From Minisyncoccota bacterium (GTDB taxonomy: Bacteria; Patescibacteriota; Minisyncoccia; Minisyncoccales; RBG-13-42-11): a DNA stretch of 64,000 bases. Within the stretch, counting starts at the first letter, position 1. Every line of letters begins with the position of its first letter. The notes under the pieces were generated by a model, which ran no database searches, was not told the DNA's origin, and saw only the letters and a list, made by a program, of their open reading frames with translations. Position numbers and translations under genes: made by a program. Shown here piece by piece: positions 3,588-63,970 of the stretch. The stretch is taken from positions 11,128 to 75,127 of the forward strand of contig JADHYE010000001.1 in NCBI GenBank assembly GCA_016782605.1. Direction: 5' to 3'.

Positions 3588-3850
3588 AGTGGTAATACTT
3601 AATTAATCGCGGCACGCGTCGCTTACGCTCCGCTAACACCGCTCTTTAGAAGACGAACGCAGTGAGGCGGGAAAAGAGATTTATCTCTTTGACCACTCTC
3701 GGTGCTCAATGAAGCTAAAGCTTCATTCCCCTTTCCGACATGGAATGGTTCTACTGAAACAAAAATGTCTGCTTTCCGCAGACAAAAATCAAGAAAAACT
3801 TAAAACTTTTCCTCGGCGGGTCTTATGGACGCCCACTGTCTGCGGATAAT
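3588..3850 (-). promoter_or_regulatory. long structured rplJ 5' leader with mutually exclusive terminator and antiterminator pairings
   Basis: On the gene strand, GTCTGCGGAAAGCAGAC followed by a U-run (plus coordinates 3761-3783) competes with pairing of CCGCAGACA (3837-3845) to TGTCTGCGG (3776-3784). An approximately 89-nt module (3639-3727) is near-identical to the rplK leader. Confidence 0.5.
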
Positions 3851-3992: not shown

Positions 3993-5033
3993 TTATTTGA
4001 AATACTTTACCTTAGCCGTATTGTGTTCGTCCAAGGTTTTGCTAAAAATAGTTTCTCCTTCCCTGGTGGAAAGATAATACCAGTAATCGCTATCTTGAAG
4101 ATAAACAGCAGCGATAATGCTTTCAAGTCCAGGATTACAAATCGGACCCAAGGGAAGCCCTTTGTATTTGTAAGTATTGTAGGGAGAATCAATTTCTGTA
4201 CCAGAAGCGATCTCTGATCTCATTTCGTCAAACGTCCAGTTTTCTTTTCCTAAGATATAAGCAATGGTGGCGCAGCTGCGCAAGGGTTCGCTATTCTCAA
4301 TCTTTCCCCAGAAAATGCCAGAAACTATTTTTTTGTCCTCCAAAGTTATTACTTCCTTCTCAAGAATACTAGCCATGGTCACTATTTCAAAAATAGTTTT
4401 GCCTTGTTTCTTAATTTCCTCTCTTAATTCAGAATTCAATTTCTTATCGAAATTAATAAGCATTTTTTCAACAACGCTTTCCATGCTTTCTTTGCTGGTT
4501 TTCTCGTAAGTATCGGGAAAAAGATATCCTTCCAGACTTAAATTCTCAGGCTTATCTCTAAGAAAAGCAAAATCAGCAGAAAAATCTTTTGAAGAAGAAC
4601 CGGTTATCGGAGAACCGACCAATCCAAAAAAATCATCAGCCCCAAATAAACCTTTGCTTTCAAAATAAGAAGCGATATCCCTTAAACTCCATCCTTCAAT
4701 AATAGTGATCTTTTCCTTTATGACATTGCCGGAAAAAAGCTTGTCAGCAATCTGAGGCATATTCATTGAAGGAGACAAAATATATTCTCCTGCTTTTAAA
4801 TAAGAAGCCATTCCCACAGTCAAAACATAAACCCGGAAAACAGGAGACCACCTTATCAATCCCTGATTTTCCAAATTCAAGCCGATGTCCCTTGAACCCT
4901 GACCCTTTTCCACGCTGAAAATAACTTCTTTTTCAGAATTCTGTTCTACGGGCAAAATAACCAGCCAGGAAGCAATCAGAACAATAATAACGACAATAAT
5001 TAAAATTAAAGATTTTTTCACCCCGTATATCAA
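3993..5033 (-). CDS. mltG: endolytic murein transglycosylase MltG (YceG family)
   Basis: 346 aa; N-terminal TM segment; YceG-like sequence. The called TTG start and first four codons (MIYG) lie inside the adjacent repeat element. The true start may be the GTG spanning 5019-5021. Confidence 0.75.
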   Translation of the reverse strand: MIYGVKKSLILIIVVIIVLIASWLVILPVEQNSEKEVIFSVEKGQGSRDIGLNLENQGLIRWSPVFRVYVLTVGMASYLKAGEYILSPSMNMPQIADKLFSGNVIKEKITIIEGWSLRDIASYFESKGLFGADDFFGLVGSPITGSSSKDFSADFAFLRDKPENLSLEGYLFPDTYEKTSKESMESVVEKMLINFDKKLNSELREEIKKQGKTIFEIVTMASILEKEVITLEDKKIVSGIFWGKIENSEPLRSCATIAYILGKENWTFDEMRSEIASGTEIDSPYNTYKYKGLPLGPICNPGLESIIAAVYLQDSDYWYYLSTREGETIFSKTLDEHNTAKVKYFK

Positions 5034-5152
5034 CCTCCAAGCATTTTCAATGCGAAAATATCCTGAAGGCTGTCTTTATTTAATAATATATTCAACATAA
5101 TAACTTTGTTTGAGATTTTAATACGAAGTATTCTGGAAGTTGTATTACGGGG
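5021..5152 (+). mobile_element. Family-1 miniature inverted-repeat element, copy 1 (divergent inverted-repeat ends; flanked by TTCA direct repeats)
   Basis: ccccgtatatcaacctccaa ... ttggaagttgtattacgggg; shared core gcattttcaatgcgaaaa...; fills the pcm-mltG spacer. Confidence 0.8.
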
Positions 5153-5153
5153 T

Positions 5154-5789
5154 TCATTTTTTCAATAAAGGAACGAAAATAAACCCTGGATGTTCTTTTT
5201 CTTCAAAATCAGTTTCGTTCTTTTTAATTAAAAGCCAGATTGAAGAATCAACCGGAGCAACAATCCTGCCTCCGATTTTCAGCTGCTTTTTCCAAGAATC
5301 GGGAATATTAACAGCACTAGCAGATGCTAAAATCTTGTCAAACCCTTCGACAAACTCAGGGTGAGAGGAGATATTGGGATAACCGTTGTTTCCGTCAAGA
5401 CAGAAAAACTGAACAATCCCCTTTTTAACGAAATTATATTTTGAAACGTTTTTCTCGCCAAAGTCCTTCAATTCCTGGATTATATCAAGGGAAATAACCT
5501 TTCCTTTTTTACCGACAATTTCAGCTAACAAAGCGCTGGTCCAGCCAGAGCCTGAACCAACATCCAAAACCTTATCCCCTTCATGCAAATCCAGCAATTC
5601 CATCATAAAAGCAACAACCAAAGGCTGAGAAATGGTCTGGCCGAATCCTATAGGCAAAGCCTCGTTGATCTCTGCTAAATTCTTTGAGTCTTCCGGCAAA
5701 AAATCGCTTCTCTTTATTTTTTTAAAAGCTTCTATCACTTTCGGCGTTTTCAGCCAGTTATCTTTAATTAGCTCTTCAATAAGCGGCAT
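5154..5789 (-). CDS. pcm: protein-L-isoaspartate O-methyltransferase
   Basis: 211 aa; SAM-binding motif LDVGSGSGW. Confidence 0.85.
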   Translation of the reverse strand: MPLIEELIKDNWLKTPKVIEAFKKIKRSDFLPEDSKNLAEINEALPIGFGQTISQPLVVAFMMELLDLHEGDKVLDVGSGSGWTSALLAEIVGKKGKVISLDIIQELKDFGEKNVSKYNFVKKGIVQFFCLDGNNGYPNISSHPEFVEGFDKILASASAVNIPDSWKKQLKIGGRIVAPVDSSIWLLIKKNETDFEEKEHPGFIFVPLLKK

Positions 5790-5790
5790 A

Positions 5791-5860
5791 CTAGGTAGTA
5801 GAAATTCGACAAATTTATTTTTCTTTGCTGCCAGGCAGCAGTCGAATTTTCACTACCTGG
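5791..5860 (+). mobile_element. Family-2 miniature inverted-repeat element, copy A (flanked by CATA repeats)
   Basis: ctaggtagtagaaattcgac ... gtcgaattttcactacctgg inverted-repeat ends; its left end abuts the pcm ATG and the element overlaps the last approximately 15 codons and the stop of def. Confidence 0.75.
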
Positions 5861-6312
5861 CATAGTTTTTGTGGTAAACTCATTTTATCAATAAATAGTA
5901 TTCCGTCCAAGTGGTCAATCTCGTGCTGGAAAACCCTGGCTGACAATCCATCAACTTTCATTTTGATTTTTTCCCCCTGCAGATTAAGAAACTCCAGTTC
6001 CACTTCCTTAGCTCTTTTAATCTTTAAAAACAAACCAGGAAAACTCAAGCATCCCTCTTCCATGACTTCTGTCTTTCTGCTTTTCCGCACGATCTTTGGA
6101 TTTATGAAAACTTGCGACTTTCCTTCAAAAAAAGCAGCGATTATGCTTTTTGATTCGCCGATCTGAGAAGCAGCCAATCCAATGCCGTCTTTTTCCATCA
6201 TTATCTTTTTCATTTCTTCGGCCAATATCTTCACCTCCTCGGTTATCTCCTTGATCGCAGAAGATTTCTTTCTCAGTATTGGATTTGGATATTCTAATAT
6301 TTGCTTACTCAT
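5815..6312 (-). CDS. def: peptide deformylase
   Basis: 165 aa; motifs EGCLSFPG and HEIDHLDG; the C-terminal approximately 15 codons are encoded by the Family-2 element. Confidence 0.9.
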   Translation of the reverse strand: MSKQILEYPNPILRKKSSAIKEITEEVKILAEEMKKIMMEKDGIGLAASQIGESKSIIAAFFEGKSQVFINPKIVRKSRKTEVMEEGCLSFPGLFLKIKRAKEVELEFLNLQGEKIKMKVDGLSARVFQHEIDHLDGILFIDKMSLPQKLCQVVKIRLLPGSKEK

Positions 6313-10847: not shown

Positions 10848-10915
10848 ATTGCTTATTTGCTTGCCGAGCTGCAGCAAGATAGAAGAAGAGATTTATCTCT
10901 TCGCTTCTTTGTGAA
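10848..10915 (+). repeat. Family-3 hairpin-pair element (GCTGCAGC palindrome plus GAAGAAGAGAT-TT-ATCTCTTCGC hairpin) abutting the start codon
   Basis: same two-hairpin layout as the 15138-15270 and 56365-56433 copies. Confidence 0.55.
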
Positions 10916-11021
10916 AACTAACTAAAAAGCACTTATATGAATATTATATCTAAAAAATAGATTATTACAAGCAATTTTTCTGTATTAATGTTTATTTAAT
11001 AAACACTAAAAAACCGTCTTC

Positions 11022-13348: not shown

Positions 13349-13480
13349 CCCTGTATATCAACATCCAGGCATTTTCAATGCGAAAACACCCTGAAGATTG
13401 TCTTTATTTAATAATATATTTAACATAATAACTTTGTTTGAGATTTTAATACGAAGTATTCTGGATGTTGTATTACGGGG
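13349..13480 (+). mobile_element. Family-1 element, copy 2 (flanked by CATA repeats)
   Basis: ccctgtatatcaacatccag ... ctggatgttgtattacgggg; abuts the trmD ATG. Confidence 0.85.
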
Positions 13481-14447: not shown

Positions 14448-15137
14448 TTACCAATGTTTGACTGCTAAAGCGTTTTTCGCTGCCTCAACTTCTGCTTCTT
14501 GTTTTGAAGATCCTTTGCCTTCGGCCACTAAATCCTTATCAAGGAAAACGCCGATAACGAAATTCTTTGCGTGATCCGGCCCGTGTTCTTTCAAAACTTT
14601 ATAGGTCGGAGTAATGCCCACTCTTTCTTGGGCTGCTTCCTGGAAAGTGGATTTAGCATCCCTGAAAAGACCTTTCTCAATGATTTCCGGCAATTTAACG
14701 ATTAAATTCTTTTTAATGAATTTTTCGCATGCTTTATAGCCTGAATCAAGGTAAGCTGAACCGATAAACGCTTCAAAAGTGTTGGCCAGGATATAATCCC
14801 TTGATTTGCCTGTTTCTTTCATTTCTCCTTTTGAAAGAAGCAAAAAATCATTAAAGCCCAATTCCTTAGCAACCTCAGCAAGCATTTTAGCATTAACCAG
14901 AGAAGCGCGCCAGTTGGTCAATTCGCCTTCCGGCTTTTTGGGATATTTGACAAAAAGGTGTTCGGTAATAATAAGTTCCAAAACCGCATCTCCCAAAAAT
15001 TCCAGTCTTTCATTGTTATCCAGATTGGCTTTCGGATTCTCGTTCAGATAGGAGCGATGGCAAAAAGCCTGAATCAATAAATCCTTGTTTTTGAATTTAA
15101 AATTTAATTGCTTTTCCAATATTGAAAAATCATTCAT
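14448..15137 (-). CDS. rnc: ribonuclease III
   Basis: 229 aa; catalytic signature ERLEFLGDAVLEL; C-terminal dsRBD. Confidence 0.9.
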   Translation of the reverse strand: MNDFSILEKQLNFKFKNKDLLIQAFCHRSYLNENPKANLDNNERLEFLGDAVLELIITEHLFVKYPKKPEGELTNWRASLVNAKMLAEVAKELGFNDFLLLSKGEMKETGKSRDYILANTFEAFIGSAYLDSGYKACEKFIKKNLIVKLPEIIEKGLFRDAKSTFQEAAQERVGITPTYKVLKEHGPDHAKNFVIGVFLDKDLVAEGKGSSKQEAEVEAAKNALAVKHW

Positions 15138-15270
15138 ATACCGAGTCCGCCCAAGGCGGGCGAAGGTGAAGAAGAGGTTTACCTCTTCGACTTACTTTTC
15201 TAATACCGAGTCCGCCCAAGGCGGGCGAAGGTGAAGAAGAGGTTTACCTCTTCGACTTACTTTTCTAATT
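15138..15270 (+). repeat. Family-3 hairpin-pair element present as a perfect 2 x 65-bp tandem duplication filling the nusB-rnc spacer
   Basis: The unit ccgagtccgcccaaggcgggcgaaggtgaagaagaggtttacctcttcgacttacttttctaata occurs twice with 100% identity (15141-15205 and 15206-15270). It starts right after the rnc ATG, and the last four codons and stop of nusB lie in the second unit. Confidence 0.85.
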
Positions 15271-33575: not shown

Positions 33576-34031
33576 AGTGGTAATACCTAATTAAGTCGCG
33601 GCTCGCGCATATTATATATTAATATATTGCCTTCGGCGAATGTGCTACTGCCGCTCTTTAGAAGACGAACGCAGTGAGGCGGGAAAAAAGATTTATCTCT
33701 TTGACCACTCTCGGTGCTCAATGAAGCTAAAGCTTCATTTCGGTCTGCGCTTCCGTGAACGGAAGCTTGCCTTCTAACGTTTTCCACCTCATCGGCGGAA
33801 ATCCTGTTTTCCTATACGGAAGAACCTGATGGTTCTTCCGACCCATCTCCGATATGGGATACTATTACGTTAATTATTAATTGTTCAAGCGAGGCAACAA
33901 GTTTTAAAGTAGCTCTCGGAAGCCTATTTGCATGGTTCGCCGGAAGCGAAAATAGGCTGAGAGCGCAACTCCCAAAATCTCGCAGGGATTTTGAGAAGCG
34001 GTACTTTCAAAACTTAGTTGCCGAGCACCCC
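33576..34031 (-). promoter_or_regulatory. 456-nt rplK leader built from modules shared with the rplJ and rpsK leaders
   Basis: 33651-33739 is near-identical to 3639-3727; 33820-33870 (GGAAGAACC..GGTTCTTCC and CCCATATCGGAGATGGG hairpins) is shared with 57721-57790; the approximately 30 nt before the ATG are shared by all three. Confidence 0.5.
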
Positions 34032-36872: not shown

Positions 36873-37019
36873 CCCCGTATATCAACTTCCAGAACCAAAC
36901 GCCGTTAGGTGCGTTTTAGCCTGTAAGCGGTTATTTGATAATAATTTCATATTTACAACCATTTGAGTTATGCCCGGCGTTTGTTTAGAACGCACCTTAC
37001 TGGAAGTTGTATTACGGGG
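36873..37019 (+). mobile_element. Family-1b element (copy 3): Family-1 inverted-repeat ends with an unrelated palindromic core
   Basis: ccccgtatatcaacttccag ... ctggaagttgtattacgggg; the core has its own inverted repeat (aaacgccg..ggtgcgtt / aacgcacc..cggcgttt); left flank cata, right flank catt. Confidence 0.75.
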
Positions 37020-41258: not shown

Positions 41259-41789
41259 CTAAAAAGCATCCAAATCTCTAAGCGCTTTCTCATAAATGCC
41301 CAGTGCCTTTTTAGTCTCATCCAAAGTTAACTTGTAATCAGGATCGCGAACAATATTGTTGCGAATCTGGTGTGCTTCTTTTAACTCTTCGATATTGGAA
41401 AGAGTGGCGACGGTTAGCTTTTCCAAGCTCTCTTCTAAAGAAGCGCCTCCGTACCCCATCTTTTTCAAAATATCATTCATTGTATTGTCCGCTTCAATAA
41501 CCGTTAACTTGTATTCCGATTCCAAACCAGTATCTAATCTAGCAAGAATCTTCCGCCAATCCCTTTCCATTCTTTTTACGCCAAAAGGCTTGTATCTGAA
41601 GAATTCAGCTGCGTCATAAAGAACATACATTCTCAGCCAAGAAGACTTAAAAAGCGCGAAAATTATGAAGCCCACTGCAAATACGCCAAAAACCATAAAA
41701 GCTATCTTTAAATAGAAAAGCAAATCGTCAAAAGCGGCGGAAGAAAAAAACGGCATGAAACTATTTGTAAATCCTTCAATTATTTCCAT
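41259..41789 (-). CDS. hypothetical membrane protein
   Basis: 176 aa; two TM helices; the ATG is flush with Family-1 copy 4. Confidence 0.4.
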   Translation of the reverse strand: MEIIEGFTNSFMPFFSSAAFDDLLFYLKIAFMVFGVFAVGFIIFALFKSSWLRMYVLYDAAEFFRYKPFGVKRMERDWRKILARLDTGLESEYKLTVIEADNTMNDILKKMGYGGASLEESLEKLTVATLSNIEELKEAHQIRNNIVRDPDYKLTLDETKKALGIYEKALRDLDAF

Positions 41790-41790
41790 A

Positions 41791-41922
41791 CCCCGTATAT
41801 CAACATCCAGGCATTTTCAATGCGAAAACACCCTGAAGATTGTCTTTATTTAATAATATATTCAACATAATAACTTTGTTTGAGATTTTAATACGAAGTA
41901 TTCTGGATGTTGTATTACAAGG
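41791..41922 (+). mobile_element. Family-1 element, copy 4 (flanked by CATA; variant right end ..ttacaagg)
   Basis: its terminal 8 bp supply the last codon and TAA stop of gatA. Confidence 0.85.
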
Positions 41923-43345
41923 CATATAATTTTGATATTTCTAAAATTTTATCTTCTTCGAACGGCTTGCCGATTATCTGAAGTCCGACAGGAAGATTGT
42001 CTATCTTACCGACAGGCAAGGAAACAGCCGGCAATCCAGCCAAACTGACAGGACCGGTAAAAACATCGCAAAGATACATTTGAAGCGGGTCTTTAATCTT
42101 TTCTCCGAGCTTGAAAGCCGGAGTCGGCGCAACGGGTGTCATTAAAACGTCTACCTTTTTAAACGCCTTTTCAAAATCCTGTCTTACCAAAGTCCTTACT
42201 TTCTGGGCTTTCAAATAATAAGCGTCGTAATAACCGCTGGACAAAGCATATGTTCCCAAAATAATCCTGCGGCGTACCTCGTCTCCCAATCCCCTGCCCC
42301 TTGAACGCAAATAAACTTCCATTAAATCATTACTGCTTTTGTCCTGGTGTCCGTATTTTATGCCATCGTATCTTGCCAAATTAGCAGAAATCTCACAAGG
42401 CATAATTATGTAATAAGTAGCTATAGCGTAATCAGTATGAGGTAAACTTACTTCCATTATCTTTGCGCCCATTGCCTCGTATTTCTTTATCGCCTCTTTC
42501 ACTATTTTTTCCACTTCCTTATCAACTTCTTTGACAAAATATTCTTTGGGAACGCCTATTTTCAAGCCCTTGATTTTCAATCCATTGTTTTCAACCCTCA
42601 TATCAACCGAAGTTGAATCCATCTGATCTTTGCCCCTTATTACATCAAAAACAATCTTGCAGTCATCTATATTCTTGGTTAAAGGCCCTATCTGGTCAAG
42701 AGAAGAAGCCATAGCAATCAGTCCGAAGCGGGAAACTGCGCCGTAAGTCGGCCTTAACCCGACCACTCCGCAAAGAGAAGCAGGGTAACGTATCGAACCA
42801 GCTGTATCAGAACCCAAAGCGTAAACTGCCATGTCTGCGGCAACAGCAGCTGCTGAACCAGATGAAGAGCCGCCTGTTACCCTGGTTAAATCGCAAGGAT
42901 TCTTTGTCGGACCGAAGGCTGAATTCTCTCCGGAAGCTCCCATGGCAAACTCATCCAAATTGGTTTTTCCCAAAATAACCGCCTTTTCCTTTTTCAATTT
43001 CCTGACAACCGTAGCCTCATAAAGAGCAACGTAGTTTTCTAAAATCTTTGAAGCAGCCGTACACTTCAACCCTTCAACCATAATATTGTCTTTTACAGCG
43101 CAAGGAATGCCTGCCAGAACCGGTATGTTCTCGCCTCTCTTGATTATATCATCAACTTCTTCTGCTTGCTTTAAAGCTGTTTCCTCGATAACGGACAAAA
43201 AAGCAAAAATGTCTTTGTCTTTTTCCCTTATCTTTTCCAGATAAGCTTTGCACAATTCAACAGATGAGAACTCTTTGTTGACTAATCCTTGATGCGCCTG
43301 AGCAATGGTTAGATCCTGTATCTTCACCCCGTTAGAAGTTTGCAT
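41915..43345 (-). CDS. gatA: Glu-tRNA(Gln) amidotransferase subunit A
   Basis: Amidase signature is present. The first 6 codons (MQTSNG) fall inside the left inverted-repeat end of the element at 43327-43455, and the last codon plus stop fall inside Family-1 copy 4. Confidence 0.9.
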   Translation of the reverse strand: MQTSNGVKIQDLTIAQAHQGLVNKEFSSVELCKAYLEKIREKDKDIFAFLSVIEETALKQAEEVDDIIKRGENIPVLAGIPCAVKDNIMVEGLKCTAASKILENYVALYEATVVRKLKKEKAVILGKTNLDEFAMGASGENSAFGPTKNPCDLTRVTGGSSSGSAAAVAADMAVYALGSDTAGSIRYPASLCGVVGLRPTYGAVSRFGLIAMASSLDQIGPLTKNIDDCKIVFDVIRGKDQMDSTSVDMRVENNGLKIKGLKIGVPKEYFVKEVDKEVEKIVKEAIKKYEAMGAKIMEVSLPHTDYAIATYYIIMPCEISANLARYDGIKYGHQDKSSNDLMEVYLRSRGRGLGDEVRRRIILGTYALSSGYYDAYYLKAQKVRTLVRQDFEKAFKKVDVLMTPVAPTPAFKLGEKIKDPLQMYLCDVFTGPVSLAGLPAVSLPVGKIDNLPVGLQIIGKPFEEDKILEISKLYAL

Positions 43346-43455
43346 ATGTATTATTGGCCAAAAAAGACCAAAGGTTCTTTTTTGGCGGAAGTTTAACGAA
43401 ATAAAGTAATTGTTTAATCTTTAGCATGTTTAACCGTGGCAAACTTCTAACGGGG
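43327..43455 (+). mobile_element. Family-1c-like element: 17-bp perfect inverted-repeat ends (CCCCGTTAGAAGTTTGC) flanked by TTCA repeats, spanning the gatC-gatA spacer and the gatA start
   Basis: ends at 43327-43343 and 43439-43455 with TTCA on both sides; an internal CCAAAAAAGACC..GGTTCTTTTTTGG hairpin; the gatA ATG lies inside the left end. Confidence 0.6.
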
Positions 43456-43456
43456 T

Positions 43457-43741
43457 TCATTTCAAAATTGATTTTACTTTTAAATAATCTTCTTTTTTAT
43501 CGGGAAACGATTCTATTAATTTCCTGCTGCTCCCCTTTCCTTTTGGCTCATCTTTCCTTAATACGTTTTCAACTTTGATCGAATGGCTGGTCGGCTCAAT
43601 GCCGGAAATATTCACTTCTTTCAGTTTTTCAAAATAATCCAAAATCGAAGAAAGCTCTTTCTGATATTTTTCAATTTCTTGATCAGTTAAGCCCAATCTG
43701 GCAAGTTTAGCTATATGTTGTACTTCTTCTTTAGAAATCAT
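43457..43741 (-). CDS. gatC: Asp/Glu-tRNA amidotransferase subunit C
   Basis: 94 aa GatC-like. Confidence 0.8.
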   Translation of the reverse strand: MISKEEVQHIAKLARLGLTDQEIEKYQKELSSILDYFEKLKEVNISGIEPTSHSIKVENVLRKDEPKGKGSSRKLIESFPDKKEDYLKVKSILK

Positions 43742-47113: not shown

Positions 47114-47245
47114 CCCTGTATATCAACATCCAGGCATTTTCAATGCGAAAACACCCTGAAGATTGTCTTTATTTAATAATATATTTAACATAATAACTTT
47201 GTTTGAGATTTTAATACGAAGTATTCTGGATGTTGTATCACGGGG
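47114..47245 (+). mobile_element. Family-1 element, copy 5 (flanked by CATA)
   Basis: abuts the rseP ATG and fills the frr-rseP spacer. Confidence 0.85.
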
Positions 47246-47811: not shown

Positions 47812-47943
47812 CCCTGTGTATCAACATCCAGGCATTTTCAATGCGAAAACATCCTGAAGATTGTTTTTATTTAATAATATATTTAACATAATAACTTTGT
47901 TTGAGATTTTAATACGAAGTATTCTGGATGTTGTATTACGGGG
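47812..47943 (+). mobile_element. Family-1 element, copy 6 (flanked by CATA)
   Basis: abuts the frr ATG and fills the holB-frr spacer. Confidence 0.85.
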
Positions 47944-51090: not shown

Positions 51091-51129
51091 AAAAAAAATA
51101 GCGGGTAGCCATTACAATTGACTACCCGC
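51091..51129 (-). terminator. intrinsic terminator after the TPR gene
   Basis: GCGGGTAG..CTACCCGC stem followed by TATTTTTTTT on the minus strand. Confidence 0.6.
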
Positions 51130-51134
51130 ACTGC

Positions 51135-51893
51135 TCACAGAGCAGATAACTTCTCCTCAACTCCACTGATGTGGAATTTAGCACTCAGCCCAGTCTCCTT
51201 CTGAGACCTCTCATATAACTTTATGGCCGTTCTGTACTCCGTCTTTGCTCTTCGTGTCTCTCCGATTTCCCTAAGGGCATCGGCCTTGTTCTGTTTGGCA
51301 TGCCCCGCTGTTCGGAGATCTCCCTTTGCCAAAGCAGTCTTATGCACCTTTTCGCACACTTGAACACTCTCAGCGAACCTTCCCTCACGACGAAGGGTAA
51401 TGGCCTTGGTATTCCAAACCGATGGCTCTTCGGAGAATGATGCAACAGCCTTATTGATAACTGACCAAGTCTCTGGCTTTTTATCTAAAAGCCAAAGTGC
51501 CAAGGGCAGCCCATTCAAACAGGAAATTTTCCTGCTTTTGTTTCTGGTATTAAGAGCTTCCCGAAACGAAAGCTCTGCTAGTTTAAGGTTGCCCTTCCTG
51601 GTTGCGACCGGGCCTTTGATTGAGATATAATAGTAATCCCATCCCAATATCCGGTTAGCCTCGGCAATCTCTTCTTTGCCGGTTAAACTTACTTTGTTCT
51701 TCTTGATCAAGGCAACTGACTCATCATATTTACCATCTGCATACAATTTCTTAGCCAGTTTCAAGATCTTTTGGGCCGGCATCGCTTTGGCAATTTCCTG
51801 CTCTTTTTTAAAGAACAGATAAACCATTGCATTGCAACCGGTAACAAAGCCCAATAGCAAGATAAATCCTGCTGAAAGAAAAAACTCTGCCAT
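51135..51893 (-). CDS. TPR-repeat protein with N-terminal TM helix
   Basis: 252 aa; tetratricopeptide-like repeats. Confidence 0.5.
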   Translation of the reverse strand: MAEFFLSAGFILLLGFVTGCNAMVYLFFKKEQEIAKAMPAQKILKLAKKLYADGKYDESVALIKKNKVSLTGKEEIAEANRILGWDYYYISIKGPVATRKGNLKLAELSFREALNTRNKSRKISCLNGLPLALWLLDKKPETWSVINKAVASFSEEPSVWNTKAITLRREGRFAESVQVCEKVHKTALAKGDLRTAGHAKQNKADALREIGETRRAKTEYRTAIKLYERSQKETGLSAKFHISGVEEKLSAL

Positions 51894-52192
51894 CTCGGCA
51901 CCTCCTTTCTTTATTTCTTATCTTTCGTTAATATATTAATCAAATCCTTACCTTGCAGGATATAATATGAATTCAACCTCCATCTCTCTTCTCTGCTCCT
52001 CACCATATATATCAACCCATATTGGACATAAAATGAACCACCGCTCCCCTCCTTCTACAATCACATATATTACCACGCTCTTTCCAAAATGTCAACCCCA
52101 TTAGAAGTCCGCCTTGCCGGAGGCATGGCGACAGCCACCAAGGGGGCAGCTTACTTCTAACGGAGTCAAGATTGAGGTATAATAATCATATG

Positions 52193-52264
52193 CCAGGTAG
52201 TGAAAATTCAACCACTGCCGCGGCAGTGAAAAAAATAATAATTTGTCGAATTTCTACTACCTAG
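52193..52264 (-). mobile_element. Family-2 element, copy C, inverted relative to copies A and B and abutting a plus-strand gene (flanked by TATG)
   Basis: ccaggtagtgaaaattcaac cactgccgcggcagtg ... tcgaatttctactacctag; the ATG at 52266. Confidence 0.75.
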
Positions 52265-52265
52265 T

Positions 52266-53570
52266 ATGACCAAAAAGACAAAAACAATACTGTTTTTAGC
52301 CTGCTTACTTGCATTCATCCTGTTAGCTCCCTCAATAGTCCTGTACTCCCAAGGATACAGAATTGATTTTAATCCTCCAGAAGGCGGAAAAATGATTACC
52401 CAAACCGGAGGCCTTTTTTTGAAAGTCACGCCCAAACAAACAGATATTTATATTGACGGCAAACCTAAAAAAAGAACTGATTTTCTATTCGGTTCTGTTT
52501 TAATTGAAAACCTCATTCCTGGAAAGTACAAAGTAGAAATCAAAAAATTAACCAGCCAGGAAGAATACTATCCCTGGGAGAAAAACCTGGAAATACGGGA
52601 AAAACAGGTAACTGAAGCCAAGAACGTTGTCCTTTTCCCGAAAAACGTTAATTTCAACGTCTTATCAACCAACGTAGAACAGCTTTGGCTTTCTCTGGAC
52701 CAAAAGAAACTAATCTTAAAGGAAAATGAAAAAGCCAGCTGGTCCTTAAAGCTTTACGACCCGGAAAAGAATATAAAAAGCTATTTAATAAGCGACGAGG
52801 ATTTCTTCACGAAAGAACCCCAATTAATCAATCTGAAATTCTCGGGAGACTCAAGAAGTATTAATCTGGAAGTCAGCATAAAAGAAGCAATACAATCTTT
52901 TTCTCTGCAACTTGACCAAGCAAAACCAACTTTAAATAAAAAAACAGCAGCCACAACGACAACTGGAAACGCTGCTATCTCGCAACAAGCAGGCAATGAT
53001 ATATATTATCTGGACAGTTTCGGCTATCTTTTCAGGAATAAAGAAAAGCTGGCAGAAACTCCCTTTCAAACAAAACAAGAAACAGAATATGCTTTAGATA
53101 TTTTCAACGGCAACATATTCTTAAAAGAAAACGACAAACTGTACAAATTCAATTACAATCTGAAAACATTTGAACATTTCTTTGACGGAATCAATATCTT
53201 AAAGCTTTCTCCGGACAATAAAAAACTGCTTTACGCTTCAAACAATGAAATGTGGATTCTTTTCCTGGAAGACAAAATCGACCAGCCGCAGAAAAAATCA
53301 GGAGAGAAAATCTTTTTAATCCGCTTATCAGACCAAATCACAAGCATCTCCTGGATAAACGACAATTACCTGGCTTTTCTTGCCGGCAATACCGTTAAAA
53401 TCATTGAAATAGACGACAGGGACAGAATAAACGTTATAGACATCTTTGAAACAAAAAACCTCCCTCAAGAAGGAAGCATTAATGAAATGTCCTGGAACAG
53501 GTTTGACAATAAAATCTATCTCTTGGACGAAAACGGCTATTTATATAGCTCTAACGTCCTGCTCCCGTAA
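52266..53570 (+). CDS. hypothetical secreted or anchored protein (N-terminal TM, PEGA-like segment, beta-rich C-terminal region)
   Basis: 434 aa; no family recognised. Confidence 0.4.
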   Translation: MTKKTKTILFLACLLAFILLAPSIVLYSQGYRIDFNPPEGGKMITQTGGLFLKVTPKQTDIYIDGKPKKRTDFLFGSVLIENLIPGKYKVEIKKLTSQEEYYPWEKNLEIREKQVTEAKNVVLFPKNVNFNVLSTNVEQLWLSLDQKKLILKENEKASWSLKLYDPEKNIKSYLISDEDFFTKEPQLINLKFSGDSRSINLEVSIKEAIQSFSLQLDQAKPTLNKKTAATTTTGNAAISQQAGNDIYYLDSFGYLFRNKEKLAETPFQTKQETEYALDIFNGNIFLKENDKLYKFNYNLKTFEHFFDGINILKLSPDNKKLLYASNNEMWILFLEDKIDQPQKKSGEKIFLIRLSDQITSISWINDNYLAFLAGNTVKIIEIDDRDRINVIDIFETKNLPQEGSINEMSWNRFDNKIYLLDENGYLYSSNVLLP

Positions 53571-54740: not shown

Positions 54741-54872
54741 CCCCGTATATCAACATCCAAGCATTTTCAATGCGAAAACACTCTGAAGGCTGTTTTTATT
54801 TAATAATATATTCAACATAATAACTTTGTTTGATATTTTAATACGAAGTATTCTGGATGTTGTATTACAGGG
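54741..54872 (+). mobile_element. Family-1 element, copy 7 (flanked by CATA; variant right end ..ttacaggg)
   Basis: abuts the rpsI ATG; its last 8 bp supply the final codon and TAA stop of rplM. Confidence 0.85.
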
Positions 54873-57053: not shown

Positions 57054-57185
57054 CCCTGTATATCAACATCCAGGCATTTTCAATGCGAAAATATCCTGAA
57101 GGCTGTCTTTATTTAATAATATATTTAACATAATAACTTTGTTTGATATTTTAATACGAAGTATTCTGGATGTTGTATTACAAGG
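57054..57185 (+). mobile_element. Family-1 element, copy 8 (flanked by CATA; right end ..ttacaagg)
   Basis: abuts the rpsD ATG and fills the rpsK-rpsD spacer. Confidence 0.85.
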
Positions 57186-58603: not shown

Positions 58604-59905
58604 CTAATCAATGACCAGATTGAATTTAATCTTACTTAGGTCTTCTGGCACCTTATTGACCCAGAATGGCCAAAACTTGACGCTGGCCCTGGTAATCTTA
58701 GGATAGTTTTCCAAGAAGAGCTTAGCCTCGAGCAAAGACTTTCCTTTTAAGGCGTTTTTAAAGCTGAAAATGTCAACGTCAGCATAGATTTTAGCTGAAA
58801 TTGTCAAAGAAACAGCAATTTTGCCGGTCTCTAAATCAACATCGTCAATAGAATAATTTATTTTCAAACTTTCCTCATAAAGCTTTTTATCCTGGGGAAT
58901 TTGAAAAGTAATCGCTTCTTTAACGTAATTCCTAATATCTTCTTTCTTAAACACTACGACTTGGCATTGCGCTTTCACCTGATAATTAAAGTCTTTTGCT
59001 TCTGTTTCAGCAGAAGTCAAAGAAAAGTTCTCAATAATTTCTGTCTGGATGCTGTCTGGCAAATAATCGAACTTGGAAGAAATCGCTTCTGACTGCAGTT
59101 CTTTCTGCAGCAGTTCATTGCATTCTTTCTCCGCTTGTTTTGTTAAAGTTTCTTCAGCTTGAGATAAATCCTTTTCTGTCACTTTAGCAATTTCTTCATG
59201 GAAGCCGCCTGCCATTGCTTCAAAAGATTCGCCGTAGAATTTAGTATACCTGTCTGTGCCGGCAAATCCCGGTACGGAGAACTTGGTCAAAGCGATATTG
59301 TATTCTTCGCCAGGCTGATCTGCCACCACTTTTACATCTATTTCTCCTGGAACAAGCTTTCCTTTCTCATAAGTACCTCCAGGAACAGTAACTTTGATTG
59401 GCGTGCGGAATACCTTTCCGTCAGCTGAAACAAAACGGGTAGTGGCTATTAAAACCTGCTGCGAAGTTGAATAGGCATTGTACACTTTTATTGTGCCTTG
59501 CGCCTTCTCCTCTTTCATAATTTTACCGGAAGCCGGAAAAGTCTGAACAATGGTTTTTTCTTTCTGAAGCGTTTCTGCCGGAATAATCTTTAAAAGAGAA
59601 TCAATAGCTGTTGCGTTTTTGTCGATATTCGTTTCTTCTATAAGATTAAAAACTTCTGTCTCCGGCCAAACGCTTATTTCAGCTTTAGACAAAGCAATGT
59701 AGCAAAACGCTCCCAATAAAACCAAAAAAAGCAAAGAAAAAGTCAAACCCTTTTTAAAGGGTGGATTAGGAGCTTTTTTAGGAAAACCCCACAAAGGAAC
59801 CTTGGGCTTTTGCTCTAGTTCTATCTTTACTTCTGGCTCTTTGTGCTCCTCCTTTTTTTTCTCTTTTTTCGAAGGAGGGAAAACGTCTATTACTTTTTTG
59901 CTCAT
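58604..59905 (-). CDS. hypothetical protein with Lys-rich N-terminus and one TM helix
   Basis: 433 aa; no family recognised; the ATG is flush with Family-2 copy B. Confidence 0.4.
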   Translation of the reverse strand: MSKKVIDVFPPSKKEKKKEEHKEPEVKIELEQKPKVPLWGFPKKAPNPPFKKGLTFSLLFLVLLGAFCYIALSKAEISVWPETEVFNLIEETNIDKNATAIDSLLKIIPAETLQKEKTIVQTFPASGKIMKEEKAQGTIKVYNAYSTSQQVLIATTRFVSADGKVFRTPIKVTVPGGTYEKGKLVPGEIDVKVVADQPGEEYNIALTKFSVPGFAGTDRYTKFYGESFEAMAGGFHEEIAKVTEKDLSQAEETLTKQAEKECNELLQKELQSEAISSKFDYLPDSIQTEIIENFSLTSAETEAKDFNYQVKAQCQVVVFKKEDIRNYVKEAITFQIPQDKKLYEESLKINYSIDDVDLETGKIAVSLTISAKIYADVDIFSFKNALKGKSLLEAKLFLENYPKITRASVKFWPFWVNKVPEDLSKIKFNLVID

Positions 59906-59906
59906 A

Positions 59907-59979
59907 CCAGGTAGTAGAAATTCGACTAATTAAACATTATTATCACTGCCGCGGTAGTGGTCGAATTTTCACTACCTGG
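59907..59979 (+). mobile_element. Family-2 element, copy B (flanked by CATA)
   Basis: ccaggtagtagaaattcgac .. cactgccgcggtagtg .. gtcgaattttcactacctgg. Confidence 0.75.
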
Positions 59980-60006
59980 CATAATAATATTATACACTAT
60001 TTATGC

Positions 60007-63720: not shown

Positions 63721-63829
63721 TTACCAAGTTTTTATTTATAAGTTCGATGAGATGAATCTCATTTCTCGCTCAATTTATATTTATCTCTCAAACGCGAAAT
63801 GAAATAAATATTTCATTGAGCAAACGCAG

Positions 63830-63970
63830 GTGGAAAAGAAGCTTTAGCTTCTTTGACCAAGCCGAGCTTCCGAAAGAGTCAAAGAGATAAATCTCTTTTC
63901 CATCTTTGTTTTCGCTATGCGAAAACTTGATAAACGAAGATGAAGAAGAGGATTTGTCCTCTTCGCTTAC
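63830..63970 (+). repeat. two Family-3-type hairpin modules upstream of map, in plus orientation (GAAGCTTTAGCTTC, AAAGAGATAAATCTCTTT, GAAGAAGAGGATTTGTCCTCTTCGC)
   Basis: reverse-complement relatives of the rplJ/rplK leader hairpins at 3671-3727. Confidence 0.5.

Follow-up and report, generated by a model that had tools for sequence, protein, structure and literature searches.

A 129-bp segment separates gatC from gatA at positions 43327 to 43455 of the 64,000-nucleotide stretch of contig JADHYE010000001.1 from a Minisyncoccota bacterium that we analyzed (this whole stretch is referred to below as the window; its G+C content is 38.7%). The segment is a recent insertion into what had been a 4-nucleotide (nt) ATGA overlap between the stop codon of gatC and the start codon of gatA, which both lie on the minus strand, and the insertion duplicated the target TGAA. 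Taken as a whole, the explanation developed here (an insertion, a family defined by its termini that includes units encoding a GIY-YIG nuclease, and a layout organized around start codons) has, in our estimation, a probability of about 0.8. An initial annotation of this DNA had recognized the inverted repeat around the gatA start but missed the ATGA target, the GTG codon at the junction, a 42-codon frame that crosses the element, and the widespread GIY-YIG-linked family.

The site exists without the element in two syntenic relatives. L006 (94 to 96% nucleotide identity) and L010 (~82%) have a single TGAA at this place, where the gatC stop and the gatA start overlap as ATGA. Deleting positions 43327 to 43455 together with one TGAA from the window gives TTTTGAAATGAAGATACAGGAT (shorter form, AAATGAAGATACAG), the same sequence as in L006 and L010; at the restored junction, gatC ends ...SILK-TGA and gatA starts ATG-AAG-ATA-CAG (MKIQDLTIAQ) through the overlapping ATGA. 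BLAST segments of both relatives stop at window position 43456 and restart at 43326 with 4 query nt in common, which is the signature of a 4-bp target duplication. The proteins tell the same story: GatA starts with MKIQDLTIAQ in P0003 (96% identical) and P0004 (92%), the GatA proteins of L006 and L010 start with MKIQDL rather than MQTSNGVKIQDL, and more distant GatA relatives start with M-x-L-x-x-L-T-I. Since these relatives have neither the MQTSNG N terminus nor the spacer and carry only one TGAA, the element is an insertion with a 4-bp target duplication. The initial annotation had set this comparison beforehand as the check on its insertion proposal, and the outcome bore the proposal out: the close relatives lack MQTSNG (P0003 and P0004) and the spacer (L006 and L010), and instead of MQTSNG being conserved where the repeat is missing, MKIQDL stands in the relatives that have no element.

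The element itself was found in L001, a second assembly of this organism (99.98% identity across the aligned part), and in contig L002, which encodes an identical GatC. An identical GatA is annotated in a "Candidatus Pacebacteria" metagenome-assembled genome, and three short assemblies end 25 nt inside the element, as expected at multicopy repeats. The same junction has also been hit a second time. P0041, a 68%-identical GatA, starts MNPVR...VSNGV, and in L009 (the 68% relative) a 77-bp element, CCCCGTTAGAAAC...GTTTCTAACGGGG, occupies the same ATGAA with TGAA duplicated. Given that removal of the 77-bp element from the P0041 locus restores MNLSNLTIAQ, this is an independent insertion at the same gatC-gatA site.

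The structure of the element is that of a mobile repeat. The arm CCCCGTTAGAAGTTTGC at 43327 to 43343 has its exact reverse complement at 43439 to 43455 (17 of 17 positions), and TTCA on the plus strand (TGAA in the sense of the genes) flanks both sides, at 43323 to 43326 and 43456 to 43459. With up to 3 mismatches allowed, the arm sequence matches 4 times in the window against 0.13 expected (4 or more matches in 0 of 100 shuffles), and the paired-termini pattern had no match in 100 shuffles, so a chance origin of the repeat is excluded. Read on the minus strand, the right end of the element is ATG CAA ACT TCT AAC GGG/GTG AAG, i.e., MQTSNG/VK. The perfect repeat with its TTCA flanks, this reading, and an inner hairpin (43356 to 43369 with 43373 to 43386, also present in the predicted fold) had all been described in the initial annotation and match the sequence, with the sole caveat that the A and T of the ATG (43345 and 43344) lie inside the element just beyond the 17-nt arm. 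Scans for consensus promoters and terminators gave no match within the 129 bp. The element has no mobility gene of its own, being 129 bp long with a 42-codon frame that has no Pfam match, and it combines terminal inverted repeats, a target duplication verified at empty sites, and multiple copies at unrelated loci; it fits the definition of a miniature inverted-repeat transposable element (MITE). As a separate observation, the tip of the inner hairpin (43361 to 43381) is inverted among copies L193, L243, L221, and L167 (GAACCTTTGGTC versus GACCAAAGGTTC) with the stem kept, which suggests hairpin-mediated inversion or selection for structure.

Searching metagenomes with the exact 17-mer recovered at least about 20 distinct full-length relatives that are 70 to 95% identical, interior included; copies with 82 to 95% identity along their whole length occupy other loci. 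Most of them sit at ATGAA/.../TGAA, with flanks such as TTTAAATGAA/.../TGAAGG, TTAATATGAA/.../TGAAAA, and AGTCTATGAA/.../TGAAAA. Since full-length copies occur at other loci with different flanks, this is a genuine multicopy mobile family. The 17-mer was not found in viral contigs. The termini reach much further: paired 11-nt termini of the form CCCCGTTAGAA-N(49-109)-TTCTAACGGGG were present in at least 120 species-level genomes of many phyla, in a scan that took one genome per species and whose counts are lower bounds. Among the matches listed are many Patescibacteria classes as well as Planctomycetota, Deltaproteobacteria, Omnitrophota, KSB1, Thermodesulfovibrionia, and others. In the fetched loci, long-range pairs of termini turned out to be separate small copies around housekeeping genes.

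Identical 4-bp flanks surround 74 of 127 copies, a sample biased by the choice of loci through the termini pattern. These flanks are TAAA/TTTA in 27 cases, TGAA/TTCA in 21, and TTGA/TCAA in 9, followed by TGGA and TATG; the target preference is T-R-A-A-like, and TGAA duplications nearly always follow A or G (ATGAA or GTGAA). With start sites classed by open reading frame (ORF) heuristics, 32% of the copies overlap a start codon, compared with 2.5% of other occurrences of the same tetramers, and 13% overlap a stop codon, compared with 3.4%. The interiors, on the other hand, are dissimilar between genomes, and that of the 129-bp element shows no likeness to copies in other phyla, a pattern that speaks for recognition of the termini alone rather than for a conserved RNA gene.

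Another reading is a cis-regulatory RNA of the gatCAB operon that evolved locally, such as a riboswitch or attenuator. When positions 43200 to 43600 were searched against Rfam at a permissive threshold, an M-box match was returned as the sole hit. This hit lies on the antisense strand and scores 20.2 bits against a gathering threshold of 44, and we judge it to be chance. The empty sites refute a cis-regulatory origin, to which we assign next to no probability: close relatives lack the element, many unrelated genes carry it, and its interior is not conserved between genomes.

No prior description of the terminus string, of MITEs in the Candidate Phyla Radiation (CPR), or of this family was found in literature whose coverage was incomplete, and the family is apparently undescribed. 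We also noted element-encoded extensions, either N-terminal (MNPVR...) or internal (...SNGV...), in the database proteins P0041, P0158, P0179, P0180, and P0168 and at loci L069, L097, and L119, while some GIY-YIG genes carry a short element end (...SNGV/WYVYV) at their own start codon as nested insertions. Both are likely sources of annotation error.

The initial annotation had further placed the gatC-gatA element beside a second group of repeats in the window, Family 1, and this kinship is upheld by the CCCCGT ends, the size, and the length of the duplication. Its copy 1 (5021 to 5152) starts with CCCCGT and is flanked by TTCA, and the longest ORF of the YceG/MltG-family gene downstream of it reads (M)IYG/VKK across the junction, as had been reported. 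Seven other Family-1 elements, all in the same orientation, lie at the TATG starts of minus-strand housekeeping genes (trmD, gyrB, an unknown 176-amino-acid [aa] gene, rseP, frr, rpsI, and rpsD) with TATG duplicated; they are 132 bp long, except for one of 147 bp with an unrelated interior. The copies at 41791 to 41922, 47114 to 47245, and 47812 to 47943 are insertions with 4-bp duplications that are absent from L006 and L010. The copy at 36873 to 37019 is also absent from both relatives, albeit with a less clean breakpoint (flanks AATG/TATG in gene sense and a 6-nt BLAST overlap). At the other end of gatA, the insertion at 41791 to 41922 (junction, 41915 to 41926) changes the GatA C terminus from ...KLYGNN in relatives, where gatA and the downstream gene overlap by 11 nt, to ...KLYAL. 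Termini of the Family-1 type gave only one partial match in the fetched loci.

The ancestral ATG (43460 to 43458) persists, still overlaps the gatC TGA, and now opens a frame of 42 codons to the TAA at 43334 to 43332. This stop is 8 nt downstream of the element ATG and 4 nt upstream of the GTG at the junction. The junction itself (43327 to 43325) reads GTG-AAG-ATA-CAG, and initiation there would give the ancestral protein. Since the last G of the element plus TG re-creates a GTG start that would yield the exact ancestral N terminus, the element ATG is not the sole candidate start. That ATG (43345 to 43343) is nonetheless invariant in 11 of 11 family copies even though the bases before it vary, and its A/T-rich context, ...ACATATG, resembles the native starts of the genome. 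Shine-Dalgarno sequences are not enriched upstream of the genes of the window (5 of 54 versus a background of 11.5%), whose starts typically lie in an A/T-rich ...TATG.

The initial annotation had proposed that the two ends pair in the mRNA and bury the gatA start. Thermodynamically, this pairing holds: in silico, the region folds at -52.3 kcal/mol (z = -6.65), the probability of being unpaired is 0.00 for both arms, and the duplex contributes -29.6 kcal/mol. The predicted 17-bp stem would take in the nucleotides immediately 3' of the ATG as well as the G that begins the GTG. It is therefore conceivable that the main effect of the insertion is to lower or regulate GatA synthesis relative to that of GatC, particularly since start accessibility should matter in a genome that does without Shine-Dalgarno sequences, and repression by RNA structure at the second start has been described for coupled gene pairs (PMC12548453). 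Net occlusion of gatA is not established, however, because the 42-codon frame of the ancestral ATG spans the element and its translation would unwind the stem; a frame of this kind is kept in 8 of 8 gene-start copies. Moreover, a ribosome terminating at the gatC stop already covers the upstream arm, and an organism that depends on the GatCAB pathway needs its subunits jointly. We regard occlusion as the dominant effect as unlikely.

The model we favor, with about even odds, is that ribosomes arriving from gatC translate the 42-codon frame and melt the stem, such that gatC-gatA coupling is largely preserved. Ribosomes leaving gatC would restart at the old ATG and translate across the element, and gatA would then be translated by unfolding, by reinitiation at the nearby GTG or ATG, or by both. 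Unfolding and reinitiation are the two reviewed mechanisms of translational coupling (PMC12548453). In the predicted structure, the upstream stop and the downstream start are only a few nt apart, and this start is embedded in a structure that the ribosome must open, as in coupled pairs. When a ribosome was placed in silico at the gatC stop, the downstream arm was freed only partly, whereas with a ribosome at the TAA both starts were fully exposed. The frame is open to the terminal TAA in 8 of 8 distinct copies at true gene starts, as classed by the ORF heuristics, compared with 3 of 14 copies elsewhere (Fisher P = 0.001). Within the window, eight of the nine elements have such a frame, of 41 to 46 codons, ending 8 to 12 nt before the element end and running through three unrelated interiors; in each of the seven Family-1 elements at TATG, it starts at the upstream ATG and ends 12 nt before the element end.

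Four observations weigh against coupling through this frame. The open-frame signal weakens when the comparison is confined to copies of at least 82% identity (8 of 8 versus 3 of 6; P = 0.055), the open frame is not general in the wider termini family (5 of 24), the gene-start copy at 5021 to 5152 in the window has a closed frame, and the codon-position bias is weak, with 15, 11, and 20 variable columns at positions 1, 2, and 3. Given this small third-position excess, the openness of the frame appears to be what is retained, not the peptide. The same count bears on whether the frame stays open because it encodes a functional small protein. Although 11 copies, with identities down to 82%, have it open, the third-position excess is only weak, no Pfam match was found, and most copies that are not at gene starts have an interrupted frame, so that a small protein seems a very poor candidate.

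As with Neisseria Correia elements and rRNA intervening sequences, the terminal stem might also be a processing site of the RNase III type that splits the gatCA mRNA into one message for gatC and one for gatA, since it is a long perfect duplex within a cotranscribed operon. The accessible part of one account reports short ORF-less insertions and GIY-YIG-encoding nonintron insertions in CPR rRNA genes and describes no termini or duplications for them (PMC11270868); such insertions would fit the same elements being tolerated through processing. In contrast, a duplex of 17 bp is rather short for RNase III, and processing leaves both the conserved open frame and the conserved ATG unexplained. We consider it improbable.

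The same outer termini also enclose a gene. Elements of 281 to 283 bp share the outer 11 to 13 nt of the termini and the 4-bp duplication with the 129-bp element and contain one complete ORF that matches the GIY-YIG domain (PF01541; E = 6e-14 to 8e-17). A protein search with the ORF of one unit recovered at least 1,699 relatives of 85 to 93 aa, mostly from Patescibacteria. Among the best 120 homologs, 42 start with M-x-PVR (MNPVR, 35; MSPVR, 5; MCPVR, 1; MDPVR, 1), which corresponds to ATG-AA/C-CCC-GTT-AGA, i.e., the target ATG and two further target bases followed by the left terminus; in 44 others, the start is an internal ATG (MWYVY...). Nearly all of these 120 end ...FFFAKGF or ...AQGF, and the stop that follows KGF or QGF is the TAA of TTCTAACGGGG. 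The catalytic residues (two Tyr, Gly, Arg, His, and Glu) are invariant in 31 diverse members, and an Asn is nearly so. Among proteins of solved structure, UPF0213 proteins and SLX1 (1zg2, 1ywl, and 4xlg) come nearest, with weak scores (E = 0.002 to 0.05). The NCBIfam intron-endonuclease model scores 22 to 26 bits against a cutoff of 56, and the proteins consist of the catalytic domain only, with no added DNA-binding domain.

These units sit at unrelated genes, including an RNase H gene, a gene with a NusA N-terminal domain, a pair of small ORFs, and a site upstream of rpoB. Three were located by script: in L251, TATGAA/282 bp/TGAACT separates two small genes that once shared an ATGA overlap; in L264, TATGAA/282 bp/TGAAAA lies between a DHH-family gene and an RNase H gene; and in L263, TGAG is duplicated. 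In L261, upstream of the NusA N-terminal-domain gene, the junctions read by eye show a TGGA duplication and a variant left end, CCCCGTTAAAAAC; the intergenic unit of L269 has TTGA duplicated and an internal ATG. The empty counterpart of the L264 site is present in L265 (an 86% relative), where the host genes overlap by ATGA (cttATGAAaaaaatagtc), the 282 bp are absent, and BLAST segments overlap by 4 nt. Identical GIY-YIG proteins found at several loci (P0153 and P0181) proved to be the same locus in different samples and were set aside as evidence for multiple sites.

Some further GIY-YIG arrangements were observed. L228 (1221 to 1913) has a GIY-YIG ORF between other C-rich inverted repeats (CCCCCCACTTTCT...AGAAAGTGGGGGG) with TTCA duplicated, read in frame with a larger downstream ORF, and the small GIY-YIG ORF of L224 has a variant C-rich terminus, CCCGGTTAAATAA. 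Beside the unit in L261 (2019 to 3242), a UPF0102 (YraN-like nuclease) domain is apparently fused to a NusA N-terminal fragment, and the fusion precedes a second, full NusA ORF; this may represent the insertion of a further small nuclease gene into nusA or close to it.

Because the 282-bp units hold only the nuclease and the termini and the boundaries of the ORF track the termini, the GIY-YIG protein is most simply read as the mover. We see an even chance that it mobilizes long and short elements alike. It would recognize the ends and cut with a 4-nt stagger at element boundaries and at T-R-A-A targets, after which host ligation or repair would complete the move; joining of the cohesive ends would yield the "duplication" and permit precise excision. 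In an (A)TG-A-A target, the nuclease ORF uses the ATG of the host with its initiation context and stops at the TAA of the right terminus, while the last G of the element and the duplicated TG re-create a GTG with which the host gene can start. The excess of copies at start codons would follow from translation of only those copies that lie in frame behind an ATG, together with selection against intragenic insertion in compact genomes.

Several points count against a mobility role of the nuclease. No GIY-YIG ORF is present in the 64-kb window, no unit with the exact 17-nt arms was found (the shared part being 11 to 13 nt), and since the interior of the 129-bp element is unrelated to the nuclease gene, the element is not a simple deletion derivative. 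To our knowledge, no GIY-YIG enzyme is a known transposase, and the nuclease gene could be present as a passenger. The serious rival is a conventional transposase in trans: the short elements would be ordinary MITEs moved by a DDE-type enzyme encoded elsewhere, with the GIY-YIG protein as a passenger or in a role other than mobility. Terminal inverted repeats with a fixed 4-bp duplication are the classic cut-and-paste signature, the window carries these elements with no GIY-YIG gene, and a GIY-YIG transposase was not found in the literature searched. Against this stands the absence of any transposase ORF between paired termini in ~250 fetched loci of up to 15 kb (DNA around small copies), which extends to the DDE families with 4-bp duplications (IS1380/piggyBac-like, IS5, and IS701). 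In addition, the 282-bp units have space for the nuclease only, and, unlike what is expected of a passenger, the ends of the ORF fall at the termini in dozens of diverged homologs that keep their catalytic residues. We therefore view a DDE enzyme in trans as unlikely, if still to be taken seriously.

In the boldest reading, the elements would represent an undescribed class of minimal prokaryotic transposable element, with abundant non-coding derivatives (the one at gatC-gatA among them) in Patescibacteria and several other phyla, whose sole protein is a nuclease of ~90 aa (UPF0213/SLX1-like) translated from the host ATG. Such an element would insert into start codons or ATGA stop/start overlaps with a 4-bp staggered duplication, and its right end (TAA...G/TG) would pass the ribosome on to the re-created host start. 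We hold this proposal with slightly less than even confidence. No report of a GIY-YIG-based transposable element in prokaryotes was found in the literature, the coverage of which was incomplete.

Bacterial MITEs that are cotranscribed with operons include the Correia/NEMIS elements of Neisseria, ERIC of enterobacteria, and RUP and BOX of pneumococci. The gatC-gatA element is like these in its length (~100 to 150 bp), terminal repeats, many intergenic copies, long hairpin in the mRNA, and effects on the expression of neighbors. Correia elements, however, duplicate TA and have no GIY-YIG enzyme assigned to them, whereas the present element duplicates 4 bp at T-R-A-A; unlike Correia-type MITEs, it is tolerated preferentially at a start codon or a stop/start overlap, re-creates a start, and is spanned by a frame. 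Rickettsia palindromic elements are likewise short palindromic mobile repeats in or at the ends of coding sequences that sometimes add in-frame residues, but they have no linked nuclease gene and no sequence relationship to the present family, and neither a start-codon target nor a re-created start has been described for them. A likeness to piggyBac and IS1380, whose relationship to each other is noted in the literature, lies in the 4-bp T..A duplication, the C-rich ends (CCCTAGAAAG versus CCCCGTTAGAAAG), and potentially precise excision; membership was dropped because no DDE transposase was found and TTAA, the characteristic piggyBac target, occurs in 0 of the 74 identical flanks.

The units also invite comparison with free-standing GIY-YIG genes. 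The segA to segG genes of T4-like phages are, like the units, promoterless cassettes between conserved genes that often overlap the upstream ORF, and for them translational coupling has been proposed and hairpins control initiation (PMC2988022). Seg proteins differ in having an added DNA-binding domain, in cutting hundreds of bp away, and in spreading by double-strand-break repair between homologous genomes, and their genes lack terminal repeats and target duplications. The present units have repeats of 11 to 17 bp and 4-bp duplications, encode a bare catalytic domain of 85 to 93 aa, occupy many unrelated loci, and have short noncoding derivatives. Of the features of homing endonucleases, then, the GIY-YIG domain is found (in the 282-bp relatives only), while a DNA-binding domain and repeat-free spread by homing are not. 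UPF0213/YhbQ-type proteins and SLX1 share the catalytic core, and the former also the single-domain size; they are regarded as repair or structure-specific nucleases, and mobility is not the subject of the literature found on them. As for coupling, phage f1 VII/IX, MS2 coat/lysis, and Escherichia coli rpmI-rplT similarly combine a sequestered start, a hairpin opened by the ribosome, and a close stop and start (PMC12548453), whereas at gatC-gatA the structure and the frame came with a mobile element, which took the place of an ATGA overlap of 4 nt.

Features of the window discussed above, together with further repeats, are compiled in Table 1.

Table 1. Positions in the window of the gatC-gatA element, its parts, the adjacent genes, and other repeats
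Feature	Position	Strand	Remark
Mobile element, nonautonomous, MITE-like, 129 bp	43327..43455	-	Missing from syntenic L006/L010; copies at other loci
Target duplication, upstream copy (TGAA in gene sense)	43456..43459	-	Includes gatC stop TGA 43459-43457
Target duplication, downstream copy (TGAA in gene sense)	43323..43326	-	Its TG + last G of the element = GTG
Terminal inverted-repeat arm, upstream (mRNA 5'), 17 nt, CCCCGTTAGAAGTTTGC	43439..43455	-	
Terminal arm, downstream, 17 nt, GCAAACTTCTAACGGGG	43327..43343	-	Includes TAA 43334-43332 that ends the element-crossing frame
Inner A/T-rich hairpin, 13 pairs, one bulge	43356..43386		Kept across all family copies
42-codon frame MNPVRS...ANF-stop	43332..43460	-	From the ancestral gatA ATG to the TAA of the right terminus
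Element-borne ATG	43343..43345	-	Annotated gatA start; six codons upstream of the junction, in frame
Junction GTG, alternative gatA start	43325..43327	-	Would restore ancestral N terminus MKIQDL
gatC	43457..43741	-	Pfam PF02686
gatA as annotated	41915..43345	-	Pfam PF01425; both ends remodeled by insertions
Degenerate relative of the gatC-gatA element, 70 bp	52096..52165		Arms with 3 mismatches each; TCAA flanks; intergenic
Family-1 copy 1	5021..5152	-	TTCA flanks (TGAA in gene sense); junction of PCMT-family gene and mltG (YceG family)
Family-1 element, 132 bp	41791..41922	-	Duplicated TATG (gene sense), 41787-41790 and 41923-41926; inserted at the start codon of the following gene
Seven Family-1 elements	13349-13480, 36873-37019, 41791-41922, 47114-47245, 47812-47943, 54741-54872, 57054-57185		
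Further short repeats	364-409, 3632-3727, 10883-10928, 15133-15262, 33644-33739, 63822-63912		

The window holds other repeated sequences. A family of ~100-nt repeats (52177 to 52276, 59895 to 59995, and 5787 to 5864) ends GTCGAATTTCTACTACCT(A/G)GTATG right at the start codons of the genes at 52266 to 53570 (plus strand), 58604 to 59905 (minus strand), and 5154 to 5789 (minus strand), of which two encode proteins of 433 and 434 aa with no significant Pfam match; the repeat may be a shared leader, a promoter, or another element. The hairpin motif AAGAGATTTATCTCTT occurs at no fewer than 6 places in the window, a 96-nt repeat (96% identical) is found at 3632 and 33644, and a 65-nt sequence is duplicated in tandem at 15133 to 15262. 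Finally, ~1.1 kb at 51093 to 52264, including a TPR-repeat gene (51135 to 51893), corresponds to 70 bp in L006 (2619 to 2688; a 95% relative), while L010 has a gene at this position.

These insertions illustrate how a mobile element can colonize an extremely compact genome by landing on the start codon or the stop-start overlap of essential genes; in this window, gatA, frr, rseP, trmD, rpsD, rpsI, and gyrB are affected, and the element appears to carry the means to keep the host gene translated. Gene callers misassign starts at such sites, as in the GatA annotation here, which includes six element-encoded residues. If the GIY-YIG protein is the mobility enzyme, a nuclease family would be added to the repertoire of transposases, and the ~282-bp unit would be the smallest autonomous DNA element known to us. 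This would also explain the abundance of small "GIY-YIG nuclease family" ORFs in Patescibacteria, the nonintron GIY-YIG insertions in their rRNA genes, and the spurious N-terminal extensions (MNPVR... and ...SNGV) on many database proteins of these phyla.

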